64,000 bases of DNA, from sequence record OZ035795.1; one strand, written 5' to 3'. The position numbers and the translations under genes are program-made. Below are positions 1 to 51,588 of this stretch, in pieces. Below the pieces are notes generated by a model. The model ran no database searches, had not been told where the DNA came from, and saw only the letters and a program-made list of their open reading frames with translations. This stretch comes from Krischvirus LF73P4. Positions within the stretch are counted from its first letter, which is position 1. Each line of letters starts with the position of its first letter.

Positions 1-48
1 ACCCCATTATCCCCGATCCGTCAAAGTTGCAGAATATTAATTTTTGTT

Positions 49-294
49 TCATATACGCCCCTTTAATCCAACACAGATTTTAGAAGGTTCTTTGCCGTGC
101 CACATTAAGTAAAGTCCGTTAATGCGGCCTTGTTTTGTGTATGATTCTTTTCTGATCTTCTTATAGTGTCGTGTTTCCTCTACCGATTGTTTAGAATACC
201 AATCATAAAGGAAGAGGAACAAAGGCCAACCATTAGCAACCTTAATGCAGTTATTCAAAAATTCCTTATTTCGTTTAATTAATTTTCTTTTCAC
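49..294 (-). CDS. hypothetical protein (81 aa, Trp-rich); GTG start, weak support
   Basis: ORF track; start codon is GTG overlapping the upstream stop; no clear SD. Confidence 0.3.
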   Translation of the reverse strand: MKRKLIKRNKEFLNNCIKVANGWPLFLFLYDWYSKQSVEETRHYKKIRKESYTKQGRINGLYLMWHGKEPSKICVGLKGRI

Positions 295-542
295 GCTGCC
301 CCCATTGGTTTGATAGTAACAGAATCTAAAAGACCTTTGTTAGCCAGTTCGCGGCAAGTTTTCAGATCCGCAACTTCCCAGCCAGCCGCAATCAGGTTAT
401 CAATGAGGCTGTTAGCAACTTCTTCGCTCATGAAAGAGCACTGTTTGCCGATGGTGTAGCGTACACGCTGTAATTTCAGTTTACGGAAGCCTTTAACGTT
501 CAGGTCTTTAGCGATTTTCTTTGCGGTTTCGATGTTAGCCAT
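291..542 (-). CDS. hypothetical small early protein (83 aa)
   Basis: ATG at 540-542 preceded by SD1 context and promoter 583-611. Confidence 0.6.
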   Translation of the reverse strand: MANIETAKKIAKDLNVKGFRKLKLQRVRYTIGKQCSFMSEEVANSLIDNLIAAGWEVADLKTCRELANKGLLDSVTIKPMGAA

Positions 543-582
543 TGTTTGATTCTCCTAAGTGGTATCTCGTCTTGATGGTTGT

Positions 583-611
583 ATTGTAGGGGAGTTATCC
601 TCCCCTGTCAA
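583..611 (-). promoter_or_regulatory. sigma70-type early promoter (PeSL-like)
   Basis: minus strand TTGACA (606-611), 17-nt palindromic spacer GGGGAGGATAACTCCCC, TACAAT (583-588). Confidence 0.7.
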
Positions 612-625
612 CACTTTTTATAAAA

Positions 626-793
626 TTATTTGTTAATTTCTGGTGCGTTGCTCGGATAGTAACCTTCTTTAACACCCAGATATTTTGCAACCATCCCTAC
701 AATCTTCTGTGCTACTACAATGTCAAATTTCAGATAATCTTCGCCGTGGGTTTCAATGATATATGCTTCACATGCTGCTTTAGTCTCGAACAT
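626..793 (-). CDS. hypothetical protein (55 aa); paralog of 3896..4063; not in ORF track
   Basis: ATG at 791-793 with SD1; nucleotide sequence nearly identical to 3896-4063. Confidence 0.5.
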   Translation of the reverse strand: MFETKAACEAYIIETHGEDYLKFDIVVAQKIVGMVAKYLGVKEGYYPSNAPEINK

Positions 794-826
794 TTTGATT
801 CTCCTATTTCGTTTCGGTATGTGTGT

Positions 827-855
827 ATTATAGGGGATCTCCCGATCCCCGTCAA
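827..855 (-). promoter_or_regulatory. sigma70-type early promoter (PeSL-like)
   Basis: minus strand TTGACG (850-855), palindromic 17-nt spacer, TATAAT (827-832). Confidence 0.7.
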
Positions 856-869
856 CAACTTTTTTAAAA

Positions 870-1151
870 TTATTCGTGATTAGTTTCGATGTTGTGCATT
901 TTGCACCAGTTCAGCCAATCACCCAGATCCTGATAGTTAATGCTTTTATCTGCTGCCATCGTTTTTGTCTTGATACCCATATGTGCGTTATGAGTAAGCA
1001 TTTTTACAGTGAACTCAATTTTATCGCCTTTAGCTTTAACATCAACCAGTTTGGTCCACTGGCTACCAGCGCCGCGAATGTTCATACCAACGATGTTTCC
1101 GATGTATGCTTCTTTGTTTTTCAGGATTTCGGTTGCTTTGATGAATTTCAT
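870..1151 (-). CDS. hypothetical small early protein (93 aa)
   Basis: ATG 1149-1151 with SD1; promoter 1185-1213. Confidence 0.6.
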   Translation of the reverse strand: MKFIKATEILKNKEAYIGNIVGMNIRGAGSQWTKLVDVKAKGDKIEFTVKMLTHNAHMGIKTKTMAADKSINYQDLGDWLNWCKMHNIETNHE

Positions 1152-1184
1152 TTTTGATTCTCCAGTTCGTTTCGGTATGGGTGT

Positions 1185-1213
1185 ATTATGCTATGTTCTT
1201 ACTTTGGTGTCAA
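1185..1213 (-). promoter_or_regulatory. sigma70-type early promoter (PeSL-like)
   Basis: minus strand TTGACA (1208-1213), 17-nt spacer, CATAAT (1185-1190). Confidence 0.65.
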
Positions 1214-1222
1214 CAACTTTTT

Positions 1223-1492
1223 TTAGATATTTTCAGAAATAAATTTTAAAACTTGACGTAAATGTTTCTCATCTTTGATAGTCGCCGGAAGTTCTTCTTT
1301 TACTTCCTGTGCAAGATAGATATTTCCGTTCCAAGTGAAAGATCCGTCTTCGTTTACGCGATAGCTGAACATCCACTCGCAATCATTTTCGATTTCATAT
1401 ACACACAGAAGGGTGTAATCGTTAAAGCTATTGATTTCAAGGTCGAAGCCGTGACGTTTTGCAAAGTTGGTAGTGGTTTTAGTCAGTGCCAT
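1223..1492 (-). CDS. hypothetical small early protein (89 aa)
   Basis: ATG 1490-1492 with SD1; promoter 1533-1561. Confidence 0.6.
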   Translation of the reverse strand: MALTKTTTNFAKRHGFDLEINSFNDYTLLCVYEIENDCEWMFSYRVNEDGSFTWNGNIYLAQEVKEELPATIKDEKHLRQVLKFISENI

Positions 1493-1532
1493 TGTTTGAT
1501 TCTCCTAAGTGGTATCTCGTTTCGATGGGTTT

Positions 1533-1561
1533 ATTATGCTATAGGCGTGATCTGGTGTCAA
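1533..1561 (-). promoter_or_regulatory. sigma70-type early promoter (PeSL-like)
   Basis: minus strand TTGACA (1556-1561), 17-nt spacer, CATAAT (1533-1538); module nearly identical to 20628-20656. Confidence 0.65.
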
Positions 1562-1583
1562 CAACTTTTTTAAAATTTTATGC

Positions 1584-1610
1584 AATAAAAAAGCCGACAC
1601 TAAGGTCGGC
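1584..1610 (-). terminator. rho-independent terminator (minus strand)
   Basis: hairpin GCCGAC/GTCGGC followed on minus strand by a T-run; downstream of gene 1619..1927. Confidence 0.6.
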
Positions 1611-1618
1611 TAATAAAA

Positions 1619-1927
1619 TCAACGAGATAGATAATCGTTTTGCGCGATCTGGTCGGCGTATGCTGGTGTTATGTCAATCGCCAACACTTTAACGCGTGCT
1701 TTCTTGCGACCTGGGTTTTCTCGTAACCAGTGCTCATGACCGTACACATTTTTATATTTTGATGCGGTTTCGAAGGTACGGATCGGACCAGGGTAATCAG
1801 CGTAAAGGATCTCTAGGTCTTCTGTGATGTAAAAATATACGTTGTAATTGCTGTTCTCTAGCTTAAGCAGAGACTTTCGGAACATTGGGAGATTTTCGCG
1901 GGTAAATTCAAAGATATTATCTTTCAT
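1619..1927 (-). CDS. HxHW-motif family protein, paralog 1 of 6 (102 aa)
   Basis: C-terminal HEHWL ... VKVLAIDIT motif shared with five neighbouring ORFs; SD2-type context. Confidence 0.6.
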   Translation of the reverse strand: MKDNIFEFTRENLPMFRKSLLKLENSNYNVYFYITEDLEILYADYPGPIRTFETASKYKNVYGHEHWLRENPGRKKARVKVLAIDITPAYADQIAQNDYLSR

Positions 1928-1950
1928 AGTATTATCCTCAATAGTTGGAT

Positions 1951-1972
1951 GAAAAGGGGGGCTTAATGCCCC
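1951..1972 (-). terminator. terminator-like hairpin (minus strand)
   Basis: GGGGC-TTAAT-GCCCC hairpin followed by T-run on minus strand, just downstream of 1978..2265. Confidence 0.5.
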
Positions 1973-1977
1973 GTATA

Positions 1978-2265
1978 TTAAAACAGTCCTTCCTGTACAC
2001 CGTAGTAGAGTTCATCGCTGATAATTTCATTAATGCGACGGTGTGCATATTCCTGATTTGCGAAGTTGTCAGCAAGTTCTACTTTAGTTTCGCCGTCATG
2101 AGTCCATTTAGTGATAACTTTACCATCTGCAAATTTGAAGTTGAACTCTTTAGCTACTGCATCGCGTACCAGACGTGCGAACTTGTTGTTACGGATTGCA
2201 TTATCGGTTTCGTGTGCAGCGTGAGCAAATTTGTTAACTTTCAGAGTGATAGTAATGTATGCCAT
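1978..2265 (-). CDS. hypothetical protein (95 aa); paralog of 5297..5608 (AKEFN motif)
   Basis: ATG 2263-2265 with SD1; shares RxxVRxAxAKEFNxK segment with 5297..5608. Confidence 0.6.
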   Translation of the reverse strand: MAYITITLKVNKFAHAAHETDNAIRNNKFARLVRDAVAKEFNFKFADGKVITKWTHDGETKVELADNFANQEYAHRRINEIISDELYYGVQEGLF

Positions 2266-2311
2266 AATTTGATTCTCCTAGTTAGAAAGTGTATCTCGTT
2301 TCGATGGGTGT

Positions 2312-2340
2312 ATTATGCTATACACCCGACCTCATGTCAA
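2312..2340 (-). promoter_or_regulatory. sigma70-type early promoter (PeSL-like)
   Basis: minus strand TTGACA (2335-2340), 17-nt spacer, CATAAT (2312-2317). Confidence 0.65.
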
Positions 2341-2346
2341 CACTTT

Positions 2347-2625
2347 TTATAAAATAATTTTTTGATATTTTTCTATGATGTTCGTGTAATTCACATCAAC
2401 CGCTAGCACCGTTGCTTCGAATCCACCGTTTAGCCAATGGCTATGATCGTGATCGTGAAAGAAACCTAGACCAGTACGAAGACCTTCTTTATATTCGGCG
2501 CGTACATTCAGTTTGTCGTCGATAAACAGATAAAACCATGAATTTTTACTAGGATTGATGATACAACCTTTCAGATTAGGGAGAATATCACGACTAAGAA
2601 TAAACTTATCACCTACCTTGAACAT
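2347..2625 (-). CDS. HxHW-motif family protein, paralog 2 (start adjusted to ATG 2625)
   Basis: HDHDHSHWL ... VLAVDV motif; SD2 context GTGAGGACTAATATT-ATG. Confidence 0.6.
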   Translation of the reverse strand: MFKVGDKFILSRDILPNLKGCIINPSKNSWFYLFIDDKLNVRAEYKEGLRTGLGFFHDHDHSHWLNGGFEATVLAVDVNYTNIIEKYQKIIL

Positions 2626-2629
2626 AATA

Positions 2630-2950
2630 TTAGTCCTCACTTATAAGGTCAAACCAATTGTTTTTCGCATAATGCTTAATGCGTGCTTGATCTGCTTCCG
2701 CTGGTGATAGATTCCATGCAACCACTACAACTTCTGACGCATCGTCATCCGTTTCTGATACCCAATGATTATGATTCATACAATTGTTTGCTATCGCGTG
2801 AGCAAATGATCTCATTACCGGAGACGTATAATCATAGTAACGGATTTTCAGATTTTCATCAACGTACAAGTAGATCGTATACGGCTTATATTCAGTAACC
2901 AGTAACAGACAGTTACGCAATTCTGGGAAAATCTTTTTAGTTAATTTCAT
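2630..2950 (-). CDS. HxHW-motif family protein, paralog 3 (start adjusted to ATG 2950)
   Basis: NHNHWV ... VVVAWNL motif; SD2 context before internal ATG. Confidence 0.55.
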   Translation of the reverse strand: MKLTKKIFPELRNCLLLVTEYKPYTIYLYVDENLKIRYYDYTSPVMRSFAHAIANNCMNHNHWVSETDDDASEVVVVAWNLSPAEADQARIKHYAKNNWFDLISED

Positions 2951-2951
2951 T

Positions 2952-3161
2952 TTATAATCCTCGGTCGCGGCTATAGTACACGGTACGCCATACAATTTCA
3001 TGTTTCGTGTCGCTCCAGCACACGATCTCATTTACTCTTAAATCTTTGTTATCAACAAAAGATGAACATTGTGACGCTTCTTTCATCATTTTATCTGCTG
3101 TTTTCTCATCAAATACAGCACAGATTTCTTTATACACTCGATAATCTTTAAACTTGCTCAT
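2952..3161 (-). CDS. hypothetical protein, MSKFKDY family paralog A
   Basis: N-terminus MSKFKDYRVY... with KMMKEASQC segment shared with 3164..3373. Confidence 0.5.
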   Translation of the reverse strand: MSKFKDYRVYKEICAVFDEKTADKMMKEASQCSSFVDNKDLRVNEIVCWSDTKHEIVWRTVYYSRDRGL

Positions 3162-3163
3162 AA

Positions 3164-3373
3164 TTAACACCAATCAAGAGTTTTTGAGAAAACCTCTATC
3201 CATTGTTGAGTATATGCGGTTTCTTTCCATGAGACAATACCGGTAGAATAATGGTTTTTGTTTCCAGAAAAGGACGGGCATTTTGATGCATCTTCCATCA
3301 TCTTTTCCGCGAACTCTGGTTCGTATACTCGCAAGATCTGTTGATATGCTTTGTAGTCTTTAAATTTGCTCAT
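3164..3373 (-). CDS. hypothetical protein, MSKFKDY family paralog B
   Basis: N-terminus MSKFKDYKAY... KMMEDASKC; tandem to paralog A. Confidence 0.5.
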   Translation of the reverse strand: MSKFKDYKAYQQILRVYEPEFAEKMMEDASKCPSFSGNKNHYSTGIVSWKETAYTQQWIEVFSKTLDWC

Positions 3374-3638
3374 AATCGTTAACTACCTTATCAGCTTCTT
3401 TTATTGTTTTTACATCAACTGCGATAACCCGTAAAGGTTCGTCGTGGTTCCACCAATGATCGTGAATATCAGCTTGTGATTTATCACCAAAGGAATCACG
3501 AATATCATTTTTACATTTATAGCTAATGTGACCGTCATAGTCAACATAAAGGTAATTATCGAAAATCGGCGTTTTTAAGATCATGCCGAAAAATCTTTCT
3601 TTGTGTGTCTTATCCAGTGTTGCAGTAATTCGCATCAT
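3360..3638 (-). CDS. HxHW-motif family protein, paralog 4 (92 aa)
   Basis: HDHWWNH ... VIAVDV motif; SD2 context. Confidence 0.6.
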   Translation of the reverse strand: MMRITATLDKTHKERFFGMILKTPIFDNYLYVDYDGHISYKCKNDIRDSFGDKSQADIHDHWWNHDEPLRVIAVDVKTIKEADKVVNDYEQI

Positions 3639-3650
3639 AATATATTCCTC

Positions 3651-3830
3651 TTAGAAAGGGATGGTCATTTCTTGAGCTTGTACATTCTCGTTAGGATTAA
3701 ACTTCATCCAACCGATATTGTCTACCAGCATATGCACATTTTTATCATATCCTACGTGAGTAGTCAATACTAAATGTGCTTTACCTTCAACGATGATTTC
3801 CATGTACTTCTGAACTTCGATAGCTTTCAT
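3651..3830 (-). CDS. hypothetical protein (59 aa); not in ORF track
   Basis: ATG 3828-3830 with SD1 and promoter 3864-3892; uninterrupted 59 codons. Confidence 0.45.
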   Translation of the reverse strand: MKAIEVQKYMEIIVEGKAHLVLTTHVGYDKNVHMLVDNIGWMKFNPNENVQAQEMTIPF

Positions 3831-3863
3831 TTTTGATTCTCCGTTTGTTGTCTTGATGGGAGT

Positions 3864-3892
3864 ATATTACTACTCCCTTTAATCATTGTCAA
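3864..3892 (-). promoter_or_regulatory. sigma70-type early promoter (PeSL-like)
   Basis: minus strand TTGACA (3887-3892), 17-nt spacer, TAATAT (3864-3869); GGGAGTA/TACTCCC palindrome around -10. Confidence 0.65.
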
Positions 3893-3895
3893 CTA

Positions 3896-4063
3896 TTATT
3901 TGTTAATTTCCGGTGCGTTGCTCGGATAGTAACCTTCTTTAACACCCAGATATTTTGCGACCATTCCGGTGATCTTCTGTGCTACTACAATGTCAAATTT
4001 CAGGTAGTCTTCACCGTGGTTTGCTACAATGTATGCTTCGCATTCTGCTTTAGTCTGGAACAT
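3896..4063 (-). CDS. hypothetical protein (55 aa); paralog of 626..793
   Basis: ATG 4061-4063 with SD1; near-identical to 626-793 at nucleotide level. Confidence 0.5.
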   Translation of the reverse strand: MFQTKAECEAYIVANHGEDYLKFDIVVAQKITGMVAKYLGVKEGYYPSNAPEINK

Positions 4064-4097
4064 TTTTGATTCTCCTATATCTCGTTGGTATGTGTGT

Positions 4098-4126
4098 AGT
4101 ATAGGGGATCGGTGATCCCCTGTCAA
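4098..4126 (-). promoter_or_regulatory. sigma70-type early promoter (PeSL-like)
   Basis: minus strand TTGACA (4121-4126), palindromic spacer GGGGATCACCGATCCCC, TATACT (4098-4103). Confidence 0.7.
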
Positions 4127-4133
4127 CAACTTT

Positions 4134-4442
4134 TTATTCTTCATCTTCATCTTTATCTTGATATGCGTACTTCATAAATTTGTCTGCTACTTTGTCCGCG
4201 TTTTCAGGTTCTACGTCTGACGCTAGGACAACAGCTAGTTCGGTTTTGTCGTTTCCATCATACCAATGATTATGAGTGTCGTTTTCTTCGATATAAAACG
4301 AATCGTTTGGAGTTGTGCGACAATATACGTCTAAATTCCCATCGATATAAAAGATCCAATCCGAATACAAAATGATTGTTTTAGCAAGATTTTTATTGTC
4401 TCTTACAAAAGGTTCCGCGACAAATAGCTTAGTTTGTTCCAT
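4134..4442 (-). CDS. HxHW-motif family protein, paralog 5 (start adjusted to ATG 4442)
   Basis: THNHWY ... AVVLASDV motif; SD2 context. Confidence 0.55.
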   Translation of the reverse strand: MEQTKLFVAEPFVRDNKNLAKTIILYSDWIFYIDGNLDVYCRTTPNDSFYIEENDTHNHWYDGNDKTELAVVLASDVEPENADKVADKFMKYAYQDKDEDEE

Positions 4443-4458
4443 AATATTTTCCTCAAAA

Positions 4459-4650
4459 TTATACAGCTTCGTAAACTTCCCAATGTTCAGCACCAACACG
4501 CTTAACGAAAAGGTTTTCTTTGATGTTATTCATAAACGTCTGGATGGATTTAATGCGGTTGGAAGGTTTCCAGTCTTCGTTGGCATTGCGGCGATACATA
4601 ATAATATTACCAGTTCGCTTATATTCAGCAACCATTTTAAGACCACACAT
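4459..4650 (-). CDS. hypothetical protein (63 aa)
   Basis: ATG 4648-4650 with SD2 context; promoter 4699-4727. Confidence 0.5.
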   Translation of the reverse strand: MCGLKMVAEYKRTGNIIMYRRNANEDWKPSNRIKSIQTFMNNIKENLFVKRVGAEHWEVYEAV

Positions 4651-4698
4651 AATATTATCCTCAATTTGTGGGAGAGTATTACCCTCCCGATTATTGTT

Positions 4699-4727
4699 AT
4701 ACTACATTACGCAAAATGGCGTGTCAA
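4699..4727 (-). promoter_or_regulatory. sigma70-type promoter
   Basis: minus strand TTGACA (4722-4727), 17-nt spacer, TAGTAT (4699-4704); overlaps 3' end of upstream gene. Confidence 0.5.
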
Positions 4728-5027
4728 TGCTTCTTTTGCTGTTCCGCTAAGATTCTCGATCTCTCCTGGCATAACATCAACCGCCAGAACTTCTACAACA
4801 TCCTCTGATCCTAACCAGTGAGTATGACCTTTGTAGAACTTGATAATCAGACTACCTTCCTCATCCCATTTAACGCTATCGCTAGCCCACCACACATCAC
4901 CGTCGATAAAGTTGATGTAAAGCACACTACGCCACATTGAATTAATTACTTTCAATACTGCGCCTTTCATATCTTCCACGGTGTGGTCTTCCATTTTGAA
5001 GACCTCGCCTACCTGAACTTTTGCCAT
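4707..5027 (-). CDS. HxHW-motif family protein, paralog 6 (106 aa)
   Basis: GHTHWLG ... VLAVDV motif; SD2-like context. Confidence 0.6.
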   Translation of the reverse strand: MAKVQVGEVFKMEDHTVEDMKGAVLKVINSMWRSVLYINFIDGDVWWASDSVKWDEEGSLIIKFYKGHTHWLGSEDVVEVLAVDVMPGEIENLSGTAKEALTRHFA

Positions 5028-5044
5028 TTAGTCACCTCTCTTTA

Positions 5045-5224
5045 TTACATAACAATTACGCCAGCCGTTGAAAGTTGATGTTTCAACTGAGCATTTTCTG
5101 CTACTGTCAAATCAATGATTTCTTGTGACGCTGCAATCATATAGCCATTGGTGATATTGTTTTGCATCAGTTCAATGGTTTCTTCGTTGTAGCGGATTTT
5201 AGCGATGATTTCGTTGAAGTTCAT
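5045..5224 (-). CDS. hypothetical protein (59 aa); not in ORF track
   Basis: ATG 5222-5224 with SD1 and promoter 5259-5288. Confidence 0.45.
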   Translation of the reverse strand: MNFNEIIAKIRYNEETIELMQNNITNGYMIAASQEIIDLTVAENAQLKHQLSTAGVIVM

Positions 5225-5258
5225 AATTGATTCTCCTAGTTCGTTTCGGTATGTGTGT

Positions 5259-5288
5259 ATTATAGGGGAGTTTAACCTCCCCTGTCAA
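5259..5288 (-). promoter_or_regulatory. sigma70-type early promoter (PeSL-like)
   Basis: minus strand TTGACA (5283-5288), palindromic 18-nt spacer, TATAAT (5259-5264). Confidence 0.65.
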
Positions 5289-5296
5289 CAACTTTT

Positions 5297-5608
5297 TTAA
5301 AGTTTTTCCATGATAACGGTCATAATTACATCTTCTGCGCGAGCGGTCAGATTATCAGCGTCAGCATGTGGGCGGTTGGTTGTTACAGAGATAACACCGT
5401 TGCGCACTGGTTTGATATTGATATCAAGATGATCCGCGAAACGTTCGCCAGTTACAGAATGAATTTTGGTGTTAAATTCTTTTGCCAGTGCCTTGCGAAC
5501 TTCACGAATCAGGGTAGCGTTTTTCAGTTGGTTCTCCGCGCTCATGGTCTTCTGAGTGTTCATGGTTCCGTCGAAGTCAATCATTGGCAGCGTTACGATG
5601 TATTTCAT
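5297..5608 (-). CDS. hypothetical protein (103 aa); paralog of 1978..2265
   Basis: ATG 5606-5608 with SD1; AKEFN segment shared. Confidence 0.6.
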   Translation of the reverse strand: MKYIVTLPMIDFDGTMNTQKTMSAENQLKNATLIREVRKALAKEFNTKIHSVTGERFADHLDINIKPVRNGVISVTTNRPHADADNLTARAEDVIMTVIMEKL

Positions 5609-5651
5609 TTTTGATTCTCCTTAAGAAAGTGTGTTTCGTTTTGATGTGTGT

Positions 5652-5680
5652 AGTATAGGGGATCACCGATCCCCTGTCAA
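5652..5680 (-). promoter_or_regulatory. sigma70-type early promoter (PeSL-like)
   Basis: minus strand TTGACA (5675-5680), palindromic spacer, TATACT (5652-5657). Confidence 0.7.
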
Positions 5681-5688
5681 CAACTTTT

Positions 5689-6018
5689 TTATGATTTTAG
5701 TGAATTAACCACTACATCAAAATGATGTACAGAGCACACCTTATTAAACACATATTCATCGTGTTTAGGAATAGCCCCTAATCGCTCGATTTCGCTCGCT
5801 GACACGATAAACCGTTTATCAGGTGCATTTACCTTATATGCTTCAACAACGCACGGAAAACGCGTTTTAGAGAGTTCGGGATAGTTTTCTGACTCCATCA
5901 GGACAATGAATACCCTATTACATTGATTGTAGAATCCGGTTTTTGATTTCATCAAGTTTTCTTCTCTGTGAAATTCGTGCAATCTTCCTTTCATGATTTC
6001 GTTGGTTCTTGTCTTCAC
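5689..6018 (-). CDS. hypothetical protein; start uncertain (possible internal ATG at 5994 or 5952)
   Basis: ORF track; last gene of an overlapping operon. Confidence 0.45.
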   Translation of the reverse strand: MKTRTNEIMKGRLHEFHREENLMKSKTGFYNQCNRVFIVLMESENYPELSKTRFPCVVEAYKVNAPDKRFIVSASEIERLGAIPKHDEYVFNKVCSVHHFDVVVNSLKS

Positions 6019-6259
6019 AGTTTACCCACTCAACAAGGTCTTTGCCTAACTCGAAAGCCCATTCTCGGTCCTGCTTTACGTTTTGTAGGTATGGACTTTC
6101 CGACACTCGACGAAGTGATCTTGTCGTAACAAGAATGATCCCAGGAATGTTCGGATGTTCCTTTCCATATACAATAGGACGCGAGTCACTATCAATACCC
6201 TGTAAGAAGGTGTATCCTGAATCACTTAGGATCATATACATTTTCATTTCATCCATCAC
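5918..6259 (-). CDS. hypothetical protein (about 112 aa)
   Basis: ORF track; start overlaps stop of upstream gene (translational coupling). Confidence 0.5.
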   Translation of the reverse strand: MMDEMKMYMILSDSGYTFLQGIDSDSRPIVYGKEHPNIPGIILVTTRSLRRVSESPYLQNVKQDREWAFELGKDLVEWVNCEDKNQRNHERKIARISQRRKLDEIKNRILQSM

Positions 6260-6516
6260 AGTTTCCTCAACCAGTTATTAAAGCGAGTAAACCATGATGC
6301 TTTTCGTGCTTCTTCTTCGGCTTTGCACGCACGCAAACCACTGAAACACCATTCATAATCATCACTGAAACATGATTCAACAGGAACACCCGCATTTCGT
6401 AGTTCTCTGGTCTTTATCATGAATCCTTGACATAAGGGGCGACCTTCAACAATGATAGGAAGTTTAACTTTTTCCATGAAAGTATACCCAGCACGGTCAA
6501 TAATTTCAATTTTCAT
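6256..6516 (-). CDS. hypothetical protein (86 aa)
   Basis: ORF track; coupled start/stop overlap. Confidence 0.5.
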   Translation of the reverse strand: MKIEIIDRAGYTFMEKVKLPIIVEGRPLCQGFMIKTRELRNAGVPVESCFSDDYEWCFSGLRACKAEEEARKASWFTRFNNWLRKL

Positions 6517-6760
6517 TTACATTATCTCCATAGATCTTTCCATCAATATCAATTTCACCAGCGCGAACATCTAGGATAAGATGTGGTAGGTGTATGCAGT
6601 TTTCCCACCCTACGCGCTTCATTTCTTCTACGGTAACGTAAGCCCACCCGTTCGCTGTAATAAAGTCTACTTCAACCTTGAGAGGAAAGCAAGACTTTTC
6701 TATGTCTTCGAATCCGACAATATGTTTTGTTGTTGAATATGGAATATATCCGGTGATCAT
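6506..6760 (-). CDS. hypothetical protein (84 aa)
   Basis: ORF track; ATGA start/stop overlap with upstream gene. Confidence 0.5.
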   Translation of the reverse strand: MITGYIPYSTTKHIVGFEDIEKSCFPLKVEVDFITANGWAYVTVEEMKRVGWENCIHLPHLILDVRAGEIDIDGKIYGDNVNEN

Positions 6761-7191
6761 TTTGTGATCTCCTTATACTCAACACACCATAAGCGGGTAG
6801 CCCATGATAAACGCTCATAACGCTGGCAGAAATCGGACCATAGATATTGTGTACCGTCTTGCATGGTTGAAATATGCGTTTTCTCTCCAACTTTCACGAA
6901 AGAAGTATTCGATTTTGTGATCTCGACCGGAGTATATCCGAAAGCGGGTTCCAACTCAACATCTGAACTAAATGCCAATTTAACAGAATTTGTTTTTCTG
7001 ACCGCTGTCCGGTTTCCTTCTGGGTACAGCACAGCAGGTTTAGCGCCTAAGCGGATAAACTCAGTATTTTTAATGAACAGAATATCATGATAACCGTCAT
7101 ATTCCGACACTTCCATAGTAACAGGAAAATCGACATGTGCTAAACCTGGTAGATCTCGCATATCATGAAATGTAGCCATAATCTTTTTCAT
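6757..7191 (-). CDS. hypothetical protein (start adjusted to ATG 7191)
   Basis: SD2-like context before internal ATG; ORF track 6757..7218. Confidence 0.5.
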   Translation of the reverse strand: MKKIMATFHDMRDLPGLAHVDFPVTMEVSEYDGYHDILFIKNTEFIRLGAKPAVLYPEGNRTAVRKTNSVKLAFSSDVELEPAFGYTPVEITKSNTSFVKVGEKTHISTMQDGTQYLWSDFCQRYERLSWATRLWCVEYKEITK

Positions 7192-7201
7192 TCTATATTC
7201 C

Positions 7202-7399
7202 TCACTCTTCTGTTTCATTTCTTTTATATGGTACTATAACAGGATTAATACAGCAAGCACCAATTACGTTATGAGCACCACAATTTAAGCATTTATAATC
7301 ATGGAACTTATTAAGGAATCGCCCGAACTCATAACCGACTAACGCCGCGTGTACTTGAGTCTCGATCTCATCCATATCAGCCAATGTTTTAACCTTCAT
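7202..7399 (-). CDS. hypothetical Cys-containing protein (65 aa; start adjusted)
   Basis: SD2 context TTGAGGATTATATT-ATG at 7399; CLNCGAHNVIGACC segment. Confidence 0.5.
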   Translation of the reverse strand: MKVKTLADMDEIETQVHAALVGYEFGRFLNKFHDYKCLNCGAHNVIGACCINPVIVPYKRNETEE

Positions 7400-7409
7400 A
7401 ATATAATCC

Positions 7410-7700
7410 TCAAATACTGGTTTTGCGAAGATGGTCATTACATGCTTTTAATGCATCAGTCGAGGTGTCATAGCGAGTATTATCATAGCACCAATAACCA
7501 TCTGTCAACTGATAAATTAATCCATCCTTTTTAGCGTCGATGAAAGACAATTCTTTGAAAGTTTCTACTTTCTTTGCTGATACTCCACGGTCACGGCGTT
7601 TATAGAGTTTAGCTAAAATGCGTTCAGCTTGTTCCTCTTTATCGCCAGACAGATCCCAGATGATGTTTCTGATATGCTTGATTAATTGTTCAGTGGTCAT
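7410..7700 (-). CDS. hypothetical protein (96 aa), first gene of operon
   Basis: ATG 7698-7700 with SD1; promoter 7731-7758. Confidence 0.6.
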   Translation of the reverse strand: MTTEQLIKHIRNIIWDLSGDKEEQAERILAKLYKRRDRGVSAKKVETFKELSFIDAKKDGLIYQLTDGYWCYDNTRYDTSTDALKACNDHLRKTSI

Positions 7701-7730
7701 ATTTGATTCTCCTTAGTTGGTATGGTTATC

Positions 7731-7758
7731 ATTATACGGGGATTTCTCCCCGTGTCAA
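7731..7758 (-). promoter_or_regulatory. sigma70-type early promoter (PeSL-like)
   Basis: minus strand TTGACA (7753-7758), spacer CGGGGAGAAATCCCCG, TATAAT (7731-7736). Confidence 0.7.
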
Positions 7759-7761
7759 CAA

Positions 7762-7983
7762 TTAAATGATCTCTGCTTCACCGTTAAGGAAGAAAGACCA
7801 TGTTTTGTTAGGATAACGAAGCGCCCACGATTCAGCAGTTTTAACACCAGCTTCGAACAATTGACGGCTGGTTACTTTAGCCATACCATCTTCGATGGCA
7901 ACGTTTTCAATAATCATCGGGTACTTAGCGCCACGCATGAAACCGAAGCCAGCGGAAGATTTGATAATTTTAACAGTTGCCAT
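7762..7983 (-). CDS. hypothetical protein (start adjusted to ATG 7983)
   Basis: SD1 context before ATG 7981-7983; promoter 8023-8051. Confidence 0.55.
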   Translation of the reverse strand: MATVKIIKSSAGFGFMRGAKYPMIIENVAIEDGMAKVTSRQLFEAGVKTAESWALRYPNKTWSFFLNGEAEII

Positions 7984-8022
7984 TTTTGATTCTCCTAGAA
8001 AGTGTCGTGTTTCGATGGGTGT

Positions 8023-8051
8023 ATTATGCAATAACACCGGATCGCTGTCAA
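8023..8051 (-). promoter_or_regulatory. sigma70-type early promoter (PeSL-like)
   Basis: minus strand TTGACA (8046-8051), 17-nt spacer, CATAAT (8023-8028). Confidence 0.65.
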
Positions 8052-8070
8052 CACTTTCTAAGAAAAATTT

Positions 8071-8355
8071 TTAAACTAATCGAATATAGCCCAGAATTTC
8101 AGCACCTTTAGCCAGTCCTAAAACTTCCCATTCAAGGTCGCCGTAGTCATAATTTGCAACCATCAACTGACCATTTTTCATGCAGCAATCATGAGAGAAA
8201 ATTTGCCCCGCATAAACTACGATAGTAATAAACTTTCCTGATTCTGGCGGTGTGGAAGACAAAGCGACCATATGACCATTCAGCTTAGTAACCAGTGATG
8301 GAACAATAAAATTCGGGCTTACCTTAATACCGTTAAATTCGTTTGTGTCTTTCAT
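8071..8355 (-). CDS. hypothetical protein (94 aa)
   Basis: ORF track; coupled to upstream gene. Confidence 0.5.
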   Translation of the reverse strand: MKDTNEFNGIKVSPNFIVPSLVTKLNGHMVALSSTPPESGKFITIVVYAGQIFSHDCCMKNGQLMVANYDYGDLEWEVLGLAKGAEILGYIRLV

Positions 8356-8702
8356 GCCAGACCTCGCAAAACACTAATAGCATAATCATGCTGGTTATTC
8401 ATAATATCAATTGCATTGTGATAACGAGCTAAACCATCAAGGATAAATTCTTGTTTATCCTGTTTCAGTTTGGTATCACGCGCAGCCATAAGAGCATCAA
8501 GAACAGGTCCAAAGTGATTATCTAATTCATCTTCGGTTGCAATGTTTCCTATTGCCTCGTCGATCCGTGATTCTAATGCTTGCTTTTCGTTGATCACTTG
8601 CTGGGTATATTCCAACACATCAAGAATATCGCGGGTAACGTCGCCATGATAAGGTATTCCCGCATGAAGATGATCAATTAATCGCTGAATATCAATGTTC
8701 AT
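8352..8702 (-). CDS. hypothetical protein (116 aa)
   Basis: ORF track; ATGA overlap with upstream gene. Confidence 0.5.
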   Translation of the reverse strand: MNIDIQRLIDHLHAGIPYHGDVTRDILDVLEYTQQVINEKQALESRIDEAIGNIATEDELDNHFGPVLDALMAARDTKLKQDKQEFILDGLARYHNAIDIMNNQHDYAISVLRGLA

Positions 8703-9037
8703 TTGTAACCCTCCTCTGAAAGCACATCCCAGATCGTTGAGTCAAGGTGCATTAAATTCCACATAATAGAGTCATAACTACCGAAGCCAGAAGTAAAAAT
8801 TACATCACACTGGCGATAGGTCTTATGAAAATCGGTGGCTGTCTCTGCATCAATCGGCATATCGTCACCTGAAAGCACCAGACATTTAAGAATCATAACT
8901 CTGTTAGCCGTTGGCGCTTGCTTAGTCTTTTCAGCATATTTTTCGATGATCCGTTTTGCCTTTTCTTCTTTGATACGTCCAGACCAAATCCGGTTTCGGT
9001 ATTGATTCATAATAATTTCAATCACATCATTTTGCAT
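8699..9037 (-). CDS. hypothetical protein (112 aa)
   Basis: ORF track; SD-like GGAG upstream. Confidence 0.5.
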   Translation of the reverse strand: MQNDVIEIIMNQYRNRIWSGRIKEEKAKRIIEKYAEKTKQAPTANRVMILKCLVLSGDDMPIDAETATDFHKTYRQCDVIFTSGFGSYDSIMWNLMHLDSTIWDVLSEEGYK

Positions 9038-10320: not shown

Positions 10321-10917
10321 TTATTTGGTAGTACCGTCAATAAAATGTTTACGGCACACAGAAACATATTTATCCTCTGCACCAACTTCGATTTGAGCAC
10401 CATCGCGAATAACATTACCCTCTTTATCTACACGAAGGACCATTGTTGCTTTCTTGCCACAATGACAAATACCCTTCATTTCGACCAGTTTATCAGCAAA
10501 TGCCATTAATGCCGCAGATCCTTCAAATAGATTGCCCTGAAAGTCAGTGCGAAGGCCATAGCACAGTACAGGGATATTAGCATCATCAACAAGCGCACAC
10601 AAGCCTAAAACATGCTCTTTAGTCATAAATTGGGCTTCATCTACAAATACTGCATCTGGACGCCATCGATCCGGTCTACGCTTACCTAACGATTCACGAT
10701 AAACCAAATCGAAAAGATCATCCGATTTAGTGAAGGTGATCGCTGGGGCACTTAGGCCAATTCGGGAAACGACTTCACTTTCTGAATCTCGATTATCAAT
10801 CGCTGGCTTAAGAATTAATACTCGCATATCACGTTCGGTATAGTTATAAGCACTTTGTAACAGAGAAGTTGATTTGCCAGCGTTCATAGATGCATAGTAG
10901 AAATATAATTGCGCCAT
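10321..10917 (-). CDS. tdk: thymidine kinase
   Basis: MAQLYFYYASMNAGKST P-loop, LCYGLRTDF and VSVCRKH segments closely match E. coli Tdk as recalled. Confidence 0.95.
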   Translation of the reverse strand: MAQLYFYYASMNAGKSTSLLQSAYNYTERDMRVLILKPAIDNRDSESEVVSRIGLSAPAITFTKSDDLFDLVYRESLGKRRPDRWRPDAVFVDEAQFMTKEHVLGLCALVDDANIPVLCYGLRTDFQGNLFEGSAALMAFADKLVEMKGICHCGKKATMVLRVDKEGNVIRDGAQIEVGAEDKYVSVCRKHFIDGTTK

Positions 10918-24715: not shown

Positions 24716-24856
24716 TACTGATTCCTCAAATGAAAATATTTATTAACAATTGTCGCTTTGCGACGTGCCGGAGGCACTGACTACTTTTTAACCGAAACAA
24801 ATTTTCTATTATTCTAAAGATCTTTCTTCGTTTTGGTTATGTTTTAACCAACTGTA

Positions 24857-51225: not shown

Positions 51226-51238
51226 TTCAAAAAAGTTG

Positions 51239-51267
51239 TTGACAGGGGATCACGTATCCCCTATACT
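51239..51267 (+). promoter_or_regulatory. sigma70-type early promoter (PeSL-like)
   Basis: TTGACA (51239-51244), palindromic spacer GGGGATCACGTATCCCC, TATACT (51262-51267). Confidence 0.7.
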
Positions 51268-51309
51268 ACACACATCAAAACGAAACACACTTTCTTAAGG
51301 AGAATCAAA

Positions 51310-51588
51310 ATGAGCAACCTGTCTTTCGCTAAAGTAGAAATTTCTAAAACTCGCGGTGGCTTTAAAATCAAAACTTCCAATATCACTTCCTGCCGTGGTT
51401 GCGTCCGGTTTGCGTTCGACTTGGCAGCGAAGCTGGGTATTAAAACCTTTACCGTTGAGAGCGGATCTAACTGGACCACTCTGATTGTTACTGCCGCTTG
51501 GATTAATGGCGAGTATGTGGAAAAAGCATACTTTGACATTTTCTATGACTATGAAGAAAAATGCTTTTATGCACTGCAAGACATGTAA
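51310..51588 (+). CDS. hypothetical protein (92 aa)
   Basis: SD1 context. Confidence 0.55.
   Translation: MSNLSFAKVEISKTRGGFKIKTSNITSCRGCVRFAFDLAAKLGIKTFTVESGSNWTTLIVTAAWINGEYVEKAYFDIFYDYEEKCFYALQDM

Follow-up and report, generated by a model that had tools for sequence, protein, structure and literature searches.

Six small minus-strand genes of Krischvirus LF73P4, which we label m1 to m6, constitute a lineage-specific family of small, probably early accessory proteins of the T4-type hyperplastic region that has so far been filed as five separate PHROGs. The genes lie in a stretch of 64,000 nucleotides (nt) of sequence record OZ035795.1 (hereafter the window, in which all positions are counted), where an earlier inspection of the letters alone (the sequence-only reading) had pointed to six related open reading frames (ORFs). 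All six are present, and the motifs quoted for them (HEHWL, HDHSHWL, NHNHWV, HDHWWNH, THNHWY and GHTHWLG) are correct. They are m1 (1619–1927; 102 amino acids (aa); GHEHWL ... VLAIDI; isoelectric point (pI) 7.9), m2 (2347–2625; 92 aa; HDHDHSHWL ... VLAVDV; pI 6.9), m3 (2630–2950; 106 aa; NHNHWV ... VVAWNL; 36% identical to its nearest paralogue, m1), m4 (3360–3638; 92 aa; IHDHWWNH ... VIAVDV), m5 (4134–4442; 102 aa; THNHWY ... VLASDV; an acidic tail and pI 4.3) and m6 (4707–5027; 106 aa; GHTHWLG ... VLAVDV), the most divergent of the six. Coding sequences of the same length are annotated in relatives, the RB49 orthologues being RB49p197, p199, p200, p203, p206 and p208, respectively, and a GAGG Shine–Dalgarno sequence precedes the ATG of each gene by 5–9 nt.

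Krischvirus comprises RB49-like T4-type coliphages with genomes of about 164 kb. A megablast search of 50,697 phage records with window 1500–5100 returned 58 records, essentially all Krischvirus, at 92–95% identity, in which every feature under the match carries the label 'hypothetical protein'; m1–m6 are 70–100% identical to such annotated proteins. Window 278–5698 is colinear with positions 117671–123077 of phage E26, which places the six genes between alt, the gene for the RNA polymerase ADP-ribosyltransferase, and gene 30 (DNA ligase, gp30), in a hyperplastic region syntenic with alt–gp30 of RB49. Within it the genes do not form the tandem array that had been proposed: only m3 and m2 are adjacent, and elsewhere seven unrelated small ORFs and three promoter-early stem-loop (PeSL) promoters intervene.

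m1–m6 are one homologous family

We built a profile hidden Markov model (HMM) from five members at a time and searched it with hmmsearch against the 481 ORFs of the window. The omitted member was recovered at E values of 1.6e-14 (m1), 4.3e-9 (m2), 6.8e-10 (m3), 3.1e-8 (m4), 1.6e-8 (m5) and 1e-6 (m6), a similarity far beyond chance, while the best unrelated ORF reached only E ≥ 0.18. Because each member is thus recovered above all other ORFs of the window, m1–m6 are a real family, as the sequence-only reading had held; cross-hits between PHROGs join five of the six paralogues. A profile search of the window ORFs found no seventh member within the 64 kb.

Paralogues are about 20–35% identical in the six-way alignment, in which the initiator Met (M1), two His, the Trp, a Val and an Ala are invariant. 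Homology runs the full length of the proteins, through a Y-L-Y-I-D strand, a conserved Phe, HxHW, the VLAxDV strand and a P-x-E-A-D helix start, so the N-termini, which had been described as divergent, are not unrelated: the Y-L-Y-I-D strand and the Phe are common to the N-terminal half. The proposed C-terminal signature V(L/I)A(V/I)D(V/I) describes m1, m2, m4 and m6 and fails in m3 (VVAWNL) and m5 (VLASDV); similarly, the acidic stretch said to follow HxHW is replaced in m1 by a basic one (RENPGRKKARVK).

The six ORFs might instead be non-coding by-products of PeSL cassette shuffling, or their shared motif a product of chance, but nothing speaks for this beyond the region's wealth of repeated intergenic elements. 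Leave-one-out E values of 1e-6 to 1e-14, Shine–Dalgarno sites before every start, intact orthologues in every genome examined, ratios of nonsynonymous to synonymous substitution (dN/dS) of 0.10–0.30 and confident structure predictions for m1 and m2 exclude it. m1–m6 are real genes.

An old, fixed set of six paralogues

Exactly six copies, in the same order, were found in nine of nine Krischvirus genomes. The E26 genome, searched whole except for a 1-kb gap, holds six, all in the alt–gp30 region; the same ordered set of six is present in G2494, RB49, kaaroe, JK32, GoldenSnicker, G2248 and PHB13, and also in the metagenomic genome L012 (169 kb). Among the genomes compared, no variation in copy number was found apart from one optional gene (m7, described below). 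The cassettes neighbouring m1–m6 vary between phages (for example, RB49 ORF192, 195 and 196); m1–m6 thus form a stable core within a plastic region.

Among 5.8 billion proteins, a word-indexed search picked out 87 clusters, all of them sharing about 55% identity or more with one of m1–m6 and many lying on contigs of 164–176 kb. Exhaustive HMMER searching (E ≤ 1e-3) of 1.84 billion representatives yielded only 19 matches, namely proteins of 80–128 aa, one 203-aa fusion of two domains and one spurious match, P0097, a low-complexity repeat protein (1153 aa, 8 stretches) that we dropped. Scans of IMG/VR with two distant members gave no matches. The family occurs only in T4-type phages of the RB49-like group (Krischvirus) and in a small number of uncultured relatives.

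Pooled Nei–Gojobori dN/dS for the orthologue groups of nine genomes was 0.21, 0.10, 0.29, 0.18, 0.27 and 0.30 for m1 to m6, within the range of twelve neighbouring genes (0 to 0.42), and the six genes are under purifying selection. Orthologue substitutions cluster at the N-terminus, in the two loops flanking HxHW and in the C-terminal tail, the scaffold motifs being fixed; variation among paralogues likewise concentrates in these loops and at the termini. In a neighbour-joining tree every paralogue clade holds distant metagenomic orthologues, and a repeat search found no DNA-level repeats between the copies, by which recent duplication or gene conversion was rejected. Because each clade holds distant orthologues and a metagenomic contig (L015) carries m6-, m2-, m4- and m3-like genes, the duplications predate the genus. 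The six paralogues are thus an old, fixed set, and the recent expansion under diversifying selection that had been suggested is contradicted by the constant copy number, the low identity between paralogues, the lack of DNA repeats and the dN/dS values alike.

Two genes differ in allele between phages. m5 occurs in the genus as two allelic types that differ in their C-terminal tails, one about 96% and the other about 70% identical to the window copy, and in L012 m3 is swapped for a much more divergent allele (P0090) on its own branch of the tree. This pattern is one of allelic replacement at fixed positions rather than of change in copy number.

Conserved core, variable loops and possible functions

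AlphaFold2 models of m1 (predicted local distance difference test (pLDDT) 80.4; predicted template modelling (pTM) score 0.78) and m2 (pLDDT 89.8; pTM 0.83) comprise five strands and three or four helices and share the same order of elements: strand b1, a short helix, b2, b3, b4, a variable loop, a short helix starting from HxHW, a second variable segment, b5 (VLAxDV) and a C-terminal helix starting from P-x-E-A-D. The loop before the HxHW helix is of low confidence in the m1 model. Each paralogue is accordingly predicted to be one compact domain. A Foldseek search of BFVD with the m1 model retrieved only Krischvirus family members at E ≤ 1e-3; its other matches were an 88-aa protein of phage JSE and, marginally, a Pseudoalteromonas phage protein (E 0.047).

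Conservation scored across 30 diverse members leaves only one Phe and the second His invariant, with the Tyr of YLYID and the Trp nearly so. In a few members (P0082, P0091) Ser, Asn or Asp replaces the first His, which lies two residues before the invariant one, and the Asp of VLAxDV, which precedes P-x-E-A-D, alternates with Asn (in m3 and many distant members) or Gly, as would suit a helix N-cap rather than a metal ligand. Metal binding by the family is a weakly founded proposal, because only two His residues stand behind it and the first of them varies.

On these grounds we favour, at somewhat less than an even chance, the reading that m1–m6 act early as non-essential accessory proteins, binding different host proteins (or competitor targets) stoichiometrically in host takeover or counter-defence, and are not enzymes. 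It follows from their small size, the lack of an enzymatic signature, their place among early promoters in an accessory region, the purifying selection on six diverged copies and the variable loops around a conserved core. The conserved Tyr, Phe, His, Trp and VLA residues would form a common scaffold, and the loops on either side of the invariant His–Trp, variable in length and charge, would give each paralogue its own target, which would explain the retention of all six diverged copies. The hyperplastic regions of T4-type phages, with their hundreds of small early genes whose functions are unknown, are the main reservoir of host-takeover and counter-defence factors, and from context an anti-defence or host-takeover role is plausible.

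Several points weigh against the stoichiometric-binder reading. Catalysis or ligand binding could equally account for an invariant His beside a near-invariant His and Trp, and dN/dS well below 1 together with a constant copy number is atypical of a fast arms-race factor. The fold search covered viral structures (BFVD) and may have missed a cellular relative. Literature searches by accession and locus tag found no paper that mentions the m1–m6 genes, and the main text of a preprint on a phage accessory-gene screen does not mention RB49 or Krischvirus.

The conserved residues bear on the idea that the proteins are ligand or metal sponges. A metal ion or a nucleotide-derived immune signal would bind at the His-x-His-Trp site, perhaps with a homo-oligomer interface completing it, and the six paralogues would sequester different ligands, in the manner of Tad1, Tad2 and Acb2. 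The most conserved sites are indeed the invariant His, the near-invariant His two residues before it and the adjacent Trp, placed where a short helix begins between two variable loops. But two His alone are insufficient for a metal site, the first is substituted in P0082 and P0091, m7 has G-N-G-H-L at this place, the alternation at the VLAxDV Asp fits a helix N-cap better, and no match to DUF2829 or, noise aside, to another Pfam family was found at E ≤ 1 in the 30 members; we consider sponges unlikely. The same His pair could belong to small enzymes, for example phosphoesterase- or hydrolase-like ones acting on a host metabolite or modified nucleotide, and m5 has a very weak match to Cupin_2 (E 0.19). 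However, the proteins have only 84–111 residues and resemble no enzyme family in sequence or fold, their models do not form a cupin barrel and there are no further conserved polar residues for an active site, which makes catalysis the most doubtful of the functional readings.

Charge bears on a further possibility, that the proteins are regulators built on a small SH3/KOW-like barrel that bind nucleic acid, RNA polymerase or the ribosome and modulate early host or phage gene expression. An m2 orthologue (P0069) is annotated at source as 'KOW2-KOW3 domains of Spt5', and m2 and m6 begin with a KOW-like V-G-D/E-x-F motif. Against this, all but one of the six have a neutral to strongly acidic pI (4.3–6.9), which is unusual for nucleic-acid binders, and assignment to the KOW or Spt5–NusG domain was rejected since there is no Pfam KOW match; such a role is improbable. 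The full pI spread of 4.3–7.9 also disfavours any uniform role as DNA mimics or nucleic-acid binders.

Beyond stoichiometric binding as such lies a bolder proposal, which we regard as a long shot: the family would be a new counter-defence fold whose six, sometimes seven, paralogues each neutralize a different E. coli immune system or signal through the loops around the His–Trp site, so that RB49-like phages would carry a fixed, multi-target anti-immunity toolkit; the related m7 subfamily would also have moved into Salmonella prophages. If the proteins are inhibitors with six specificities, they offer a new scaffold for an anti-defence repertoire; if not, they are an ordinary lineage-specific ORFan family. 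In either case the six genes are a defined and tractable target in a phage genus used in therapy cocktails, an old fixed set that stands out in a region known for rapid cassette turnover, with confident models for a family that lacks a solved structural relative.

A probable seventh subfamily and uncultured relatives

Between n5045 (the small ORFs neighbouring the family are labelled n5045, n4459, n3651, n3164, n2952 and n1978) and m6, the genomes of G2494, G2248 and L012, and probably JSE, carry an additional 88-aa gene, m7, which a sequence search found to be absent from the window and from E26. Its product reads ...IIYVTEDD...GNGHLIN...VHLLAHSV..., keeping only the second His and having Leu in place of Trp. 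It aligns along the family domain at a weak score, hhalign against the family gives a probability of 91% (E 9e-7), and the JSE 88-aa protein, probably m7, is the first non-member match of the m1 model in BFVD (probability 0.99). By these comparisons m7 is probably a seventh, distant subfamily. Genes of the m7 type, encoding 88–105 aa with GNGHL for HxHW, occur at 10914–11180 of L001, 7370–7636 of L010, 7918–8184 of L012, 763–1032 of L019 and 10001–10294 of L020; m7 relatives are also found in Salmonella enterica, where they lie at lambdoid prophage edges.

The 2.1-kb metagenomic contig L015 encodes six family domains in five genes, among them m6-, m4- and m3-like ones and an m2-like domain fused to a second domain; P0089 (L015, 823–1434) is the 203-aa fusion of two family domains. 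Two short contigs related to L015 (L016 and L017; 35% G+C) bear a PeSL-like element. These three contigs indicate that uncultured relatives exist beyond the known genus.

Predicted early transcription units of the region

PeSLs are strong early promoters and terminators that mediate cassette shuffling in RB49 and phi1, as shown experimentally (PMC2839356). Four such elements, of the TTGACA-17/18-TATAAT type, lie on the minus strand in or next to the m1–m6 stretch. The PeSL early promoter at 5259–5288 (TTGACA-18-TATAAT, 12/12) heads n5045–m6–n4459–m5; the PeSL at 4098–4126 heads a 55-aa ORF; the PeSL-type promoter at 3864–3892 (TTGACA-17-TAATAT) heads n3651–m4–n3164–n2952–m3–m2, a unit in which starts and stops overlap or abut; and the PeSL early promoter at 2312–2340 (TTGACA-17-CATAAT) heads n1978 and, via read-through, m1. 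No family gene is ever the first behind a PeSL promoter. Judged by the promoter consensus and by published reporters on other PeSLs, m1–m6 are probably transcribed early, in three units under PeSL sigma-70 promoters, in line with the early region proposed by the sequence-only reading, the promoters lying on the gene strand and PeSL activity being known from RB49 and phi1 (PMC2839356).

Terminator-like hairpins occur, likewise on the minus strand, at 1958–1972, between n1978 and m1, a position at which phage G2494 has an annotated terminator, and, with a T-run, at 1592–1611, directly 3′ of m1, where terminators are annotated in G2494 and G2248. m1 is thus flanked by two such hairpins. It lacks a PeSL promoter to itself and may depend for expression on read-through from the promoter at 2340.

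The promoters belong to a family of 59–65-nt repeats with a G+C stem-loop between the hexamers and GGGGATC...GATCCCC stems; for window 1–9000, two overlapping families are listed with seven repeat copies apiece. The minus strand of window 562–8066 bears at least nine PeSL-type elements, each with TTGACA, a G+C stem-loop, a TATAAT-like hexamer and then a leader bearing a Shine–Dalgarno site, TTGATTCTCC (plus strand). Arbiol et al. 2010 (PMC2839356) described these elements.

Arrangement of the window and other paralogous genes

The window as a whole is not colinear with any of the 58 Krischvirus genomes. In E26 coordinates its order is 117.7–123.1 kb (plus), 42.9–63.0 kb (plus), 150.0–123.0 kb (reversed) and 42.9–30.4 kb (reversed), with junctions at window 5609–5698, 24743–24851 and 51230–51310, each inside a near-identical repeat of 81–109 nt (two PeSLs and one inverted intergenic repeat). 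This layout equals two nested inversions between inverted repeats, and reflects a genuine genome isomer or else a mis-join of the assembly at the repeats. m1–m6 lie wholly within one colinear block.

Other small genes of the region are duplicated as well. A 55-aa ORF occurs twice, at 626–793 and 3896–4063 (89% identity, within a 172-nt DNA repeat), and the adjacent 69-aa ORFs at 2952–3161 and 3164–3373 both start with MSKFKDY and are 44% identical; altogether, 10 of the 19 small genes in window 1–5700 belong to duplicated families. On the minus strand of window 5689–8037, the small ORFs at 6256–6516 and 7762–7983 are 31% identical (E 1e-5) and those at 5689–5955 and 6757–7218 are 24% identical (E 6e-4). 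The small ORFs there share a motif like 'FP..VE...G...V...E..R.G' and may, judged by these similarities, form a second paralogous family.

Comparison with known families and systems

The sequence-only reading did not recognize the family, and the searches support this: no described family matches m1–m6, which are orphans. Neither Pfam (searched with the 30 members) nor NCBIfam holds a model for the family, and both gave only noise; PADLOC gave no match at E ≤ 0.1, and a sequence search of the PDB gave none, solved anti-defence proteins included. The noise matches to PROCT, TTL, Cupin_2 and T4_Y03C each concern one member and, at E ≥ 0.0016, fall below cutoff. Three candidates suggested by the letters were rejected: the cupin HxH domain (m5 only; 11.9 bits against a cutoff of 27.2, and models that are not jelly-rolls), the HNH endonucleases (contiguous H-N-H letters) and the HIT hydrolases (an HxHxHxH run in m2). 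The latter two have no Pfam support and differ in motif, HNH and HIT motifs having different spacing or hydrophobic intervening residues.

Among the closest known systems are Tad2 and AcrIIA7, an anti-Thoeris sponge and an anti-CRISPR protein of the DUF2829 fold, from which m1–m6 differ in having neither a DUF2829 match nor a PDB sequence match, as noted above, and Tis1 (PA14_01140; PDB 6ox6_B), the immunity protein of the type VI effector Tas1. PHROGs 9345, 17255, 15972, 15965 and 16486, to one of which each of m1–m6 matches at E 1e-47 to 1e-71, and the six RB49 orthologues are the same proteins as m1–m6. PHROGs splits them five ways, all as 'unknown function', whereas the present analysis unites the five as one family.

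The nearest system by context is that of the PeSL-flanked ORFan cassettes of RB49 and phi1 (Arbiol et al. 2010, PMC2839356; Comeau et al. 2014, PMC4122927), with which m1–m6 share both the region and the regulatory elements, being co-oriented genes of the hyperplastic region downstream of sigma-70-consensus stem-loop elements. The published examples ORF191–194 and ORF210 flank the m1–m6 family (PMC2839356), a paper in which the paralogy of m1–m6 is unmentioned and duplication is worded only once, in a methods sentence. Whereas the published PeSL cassettes come and go between close relatives, m1–m6 are a stable part of the region.

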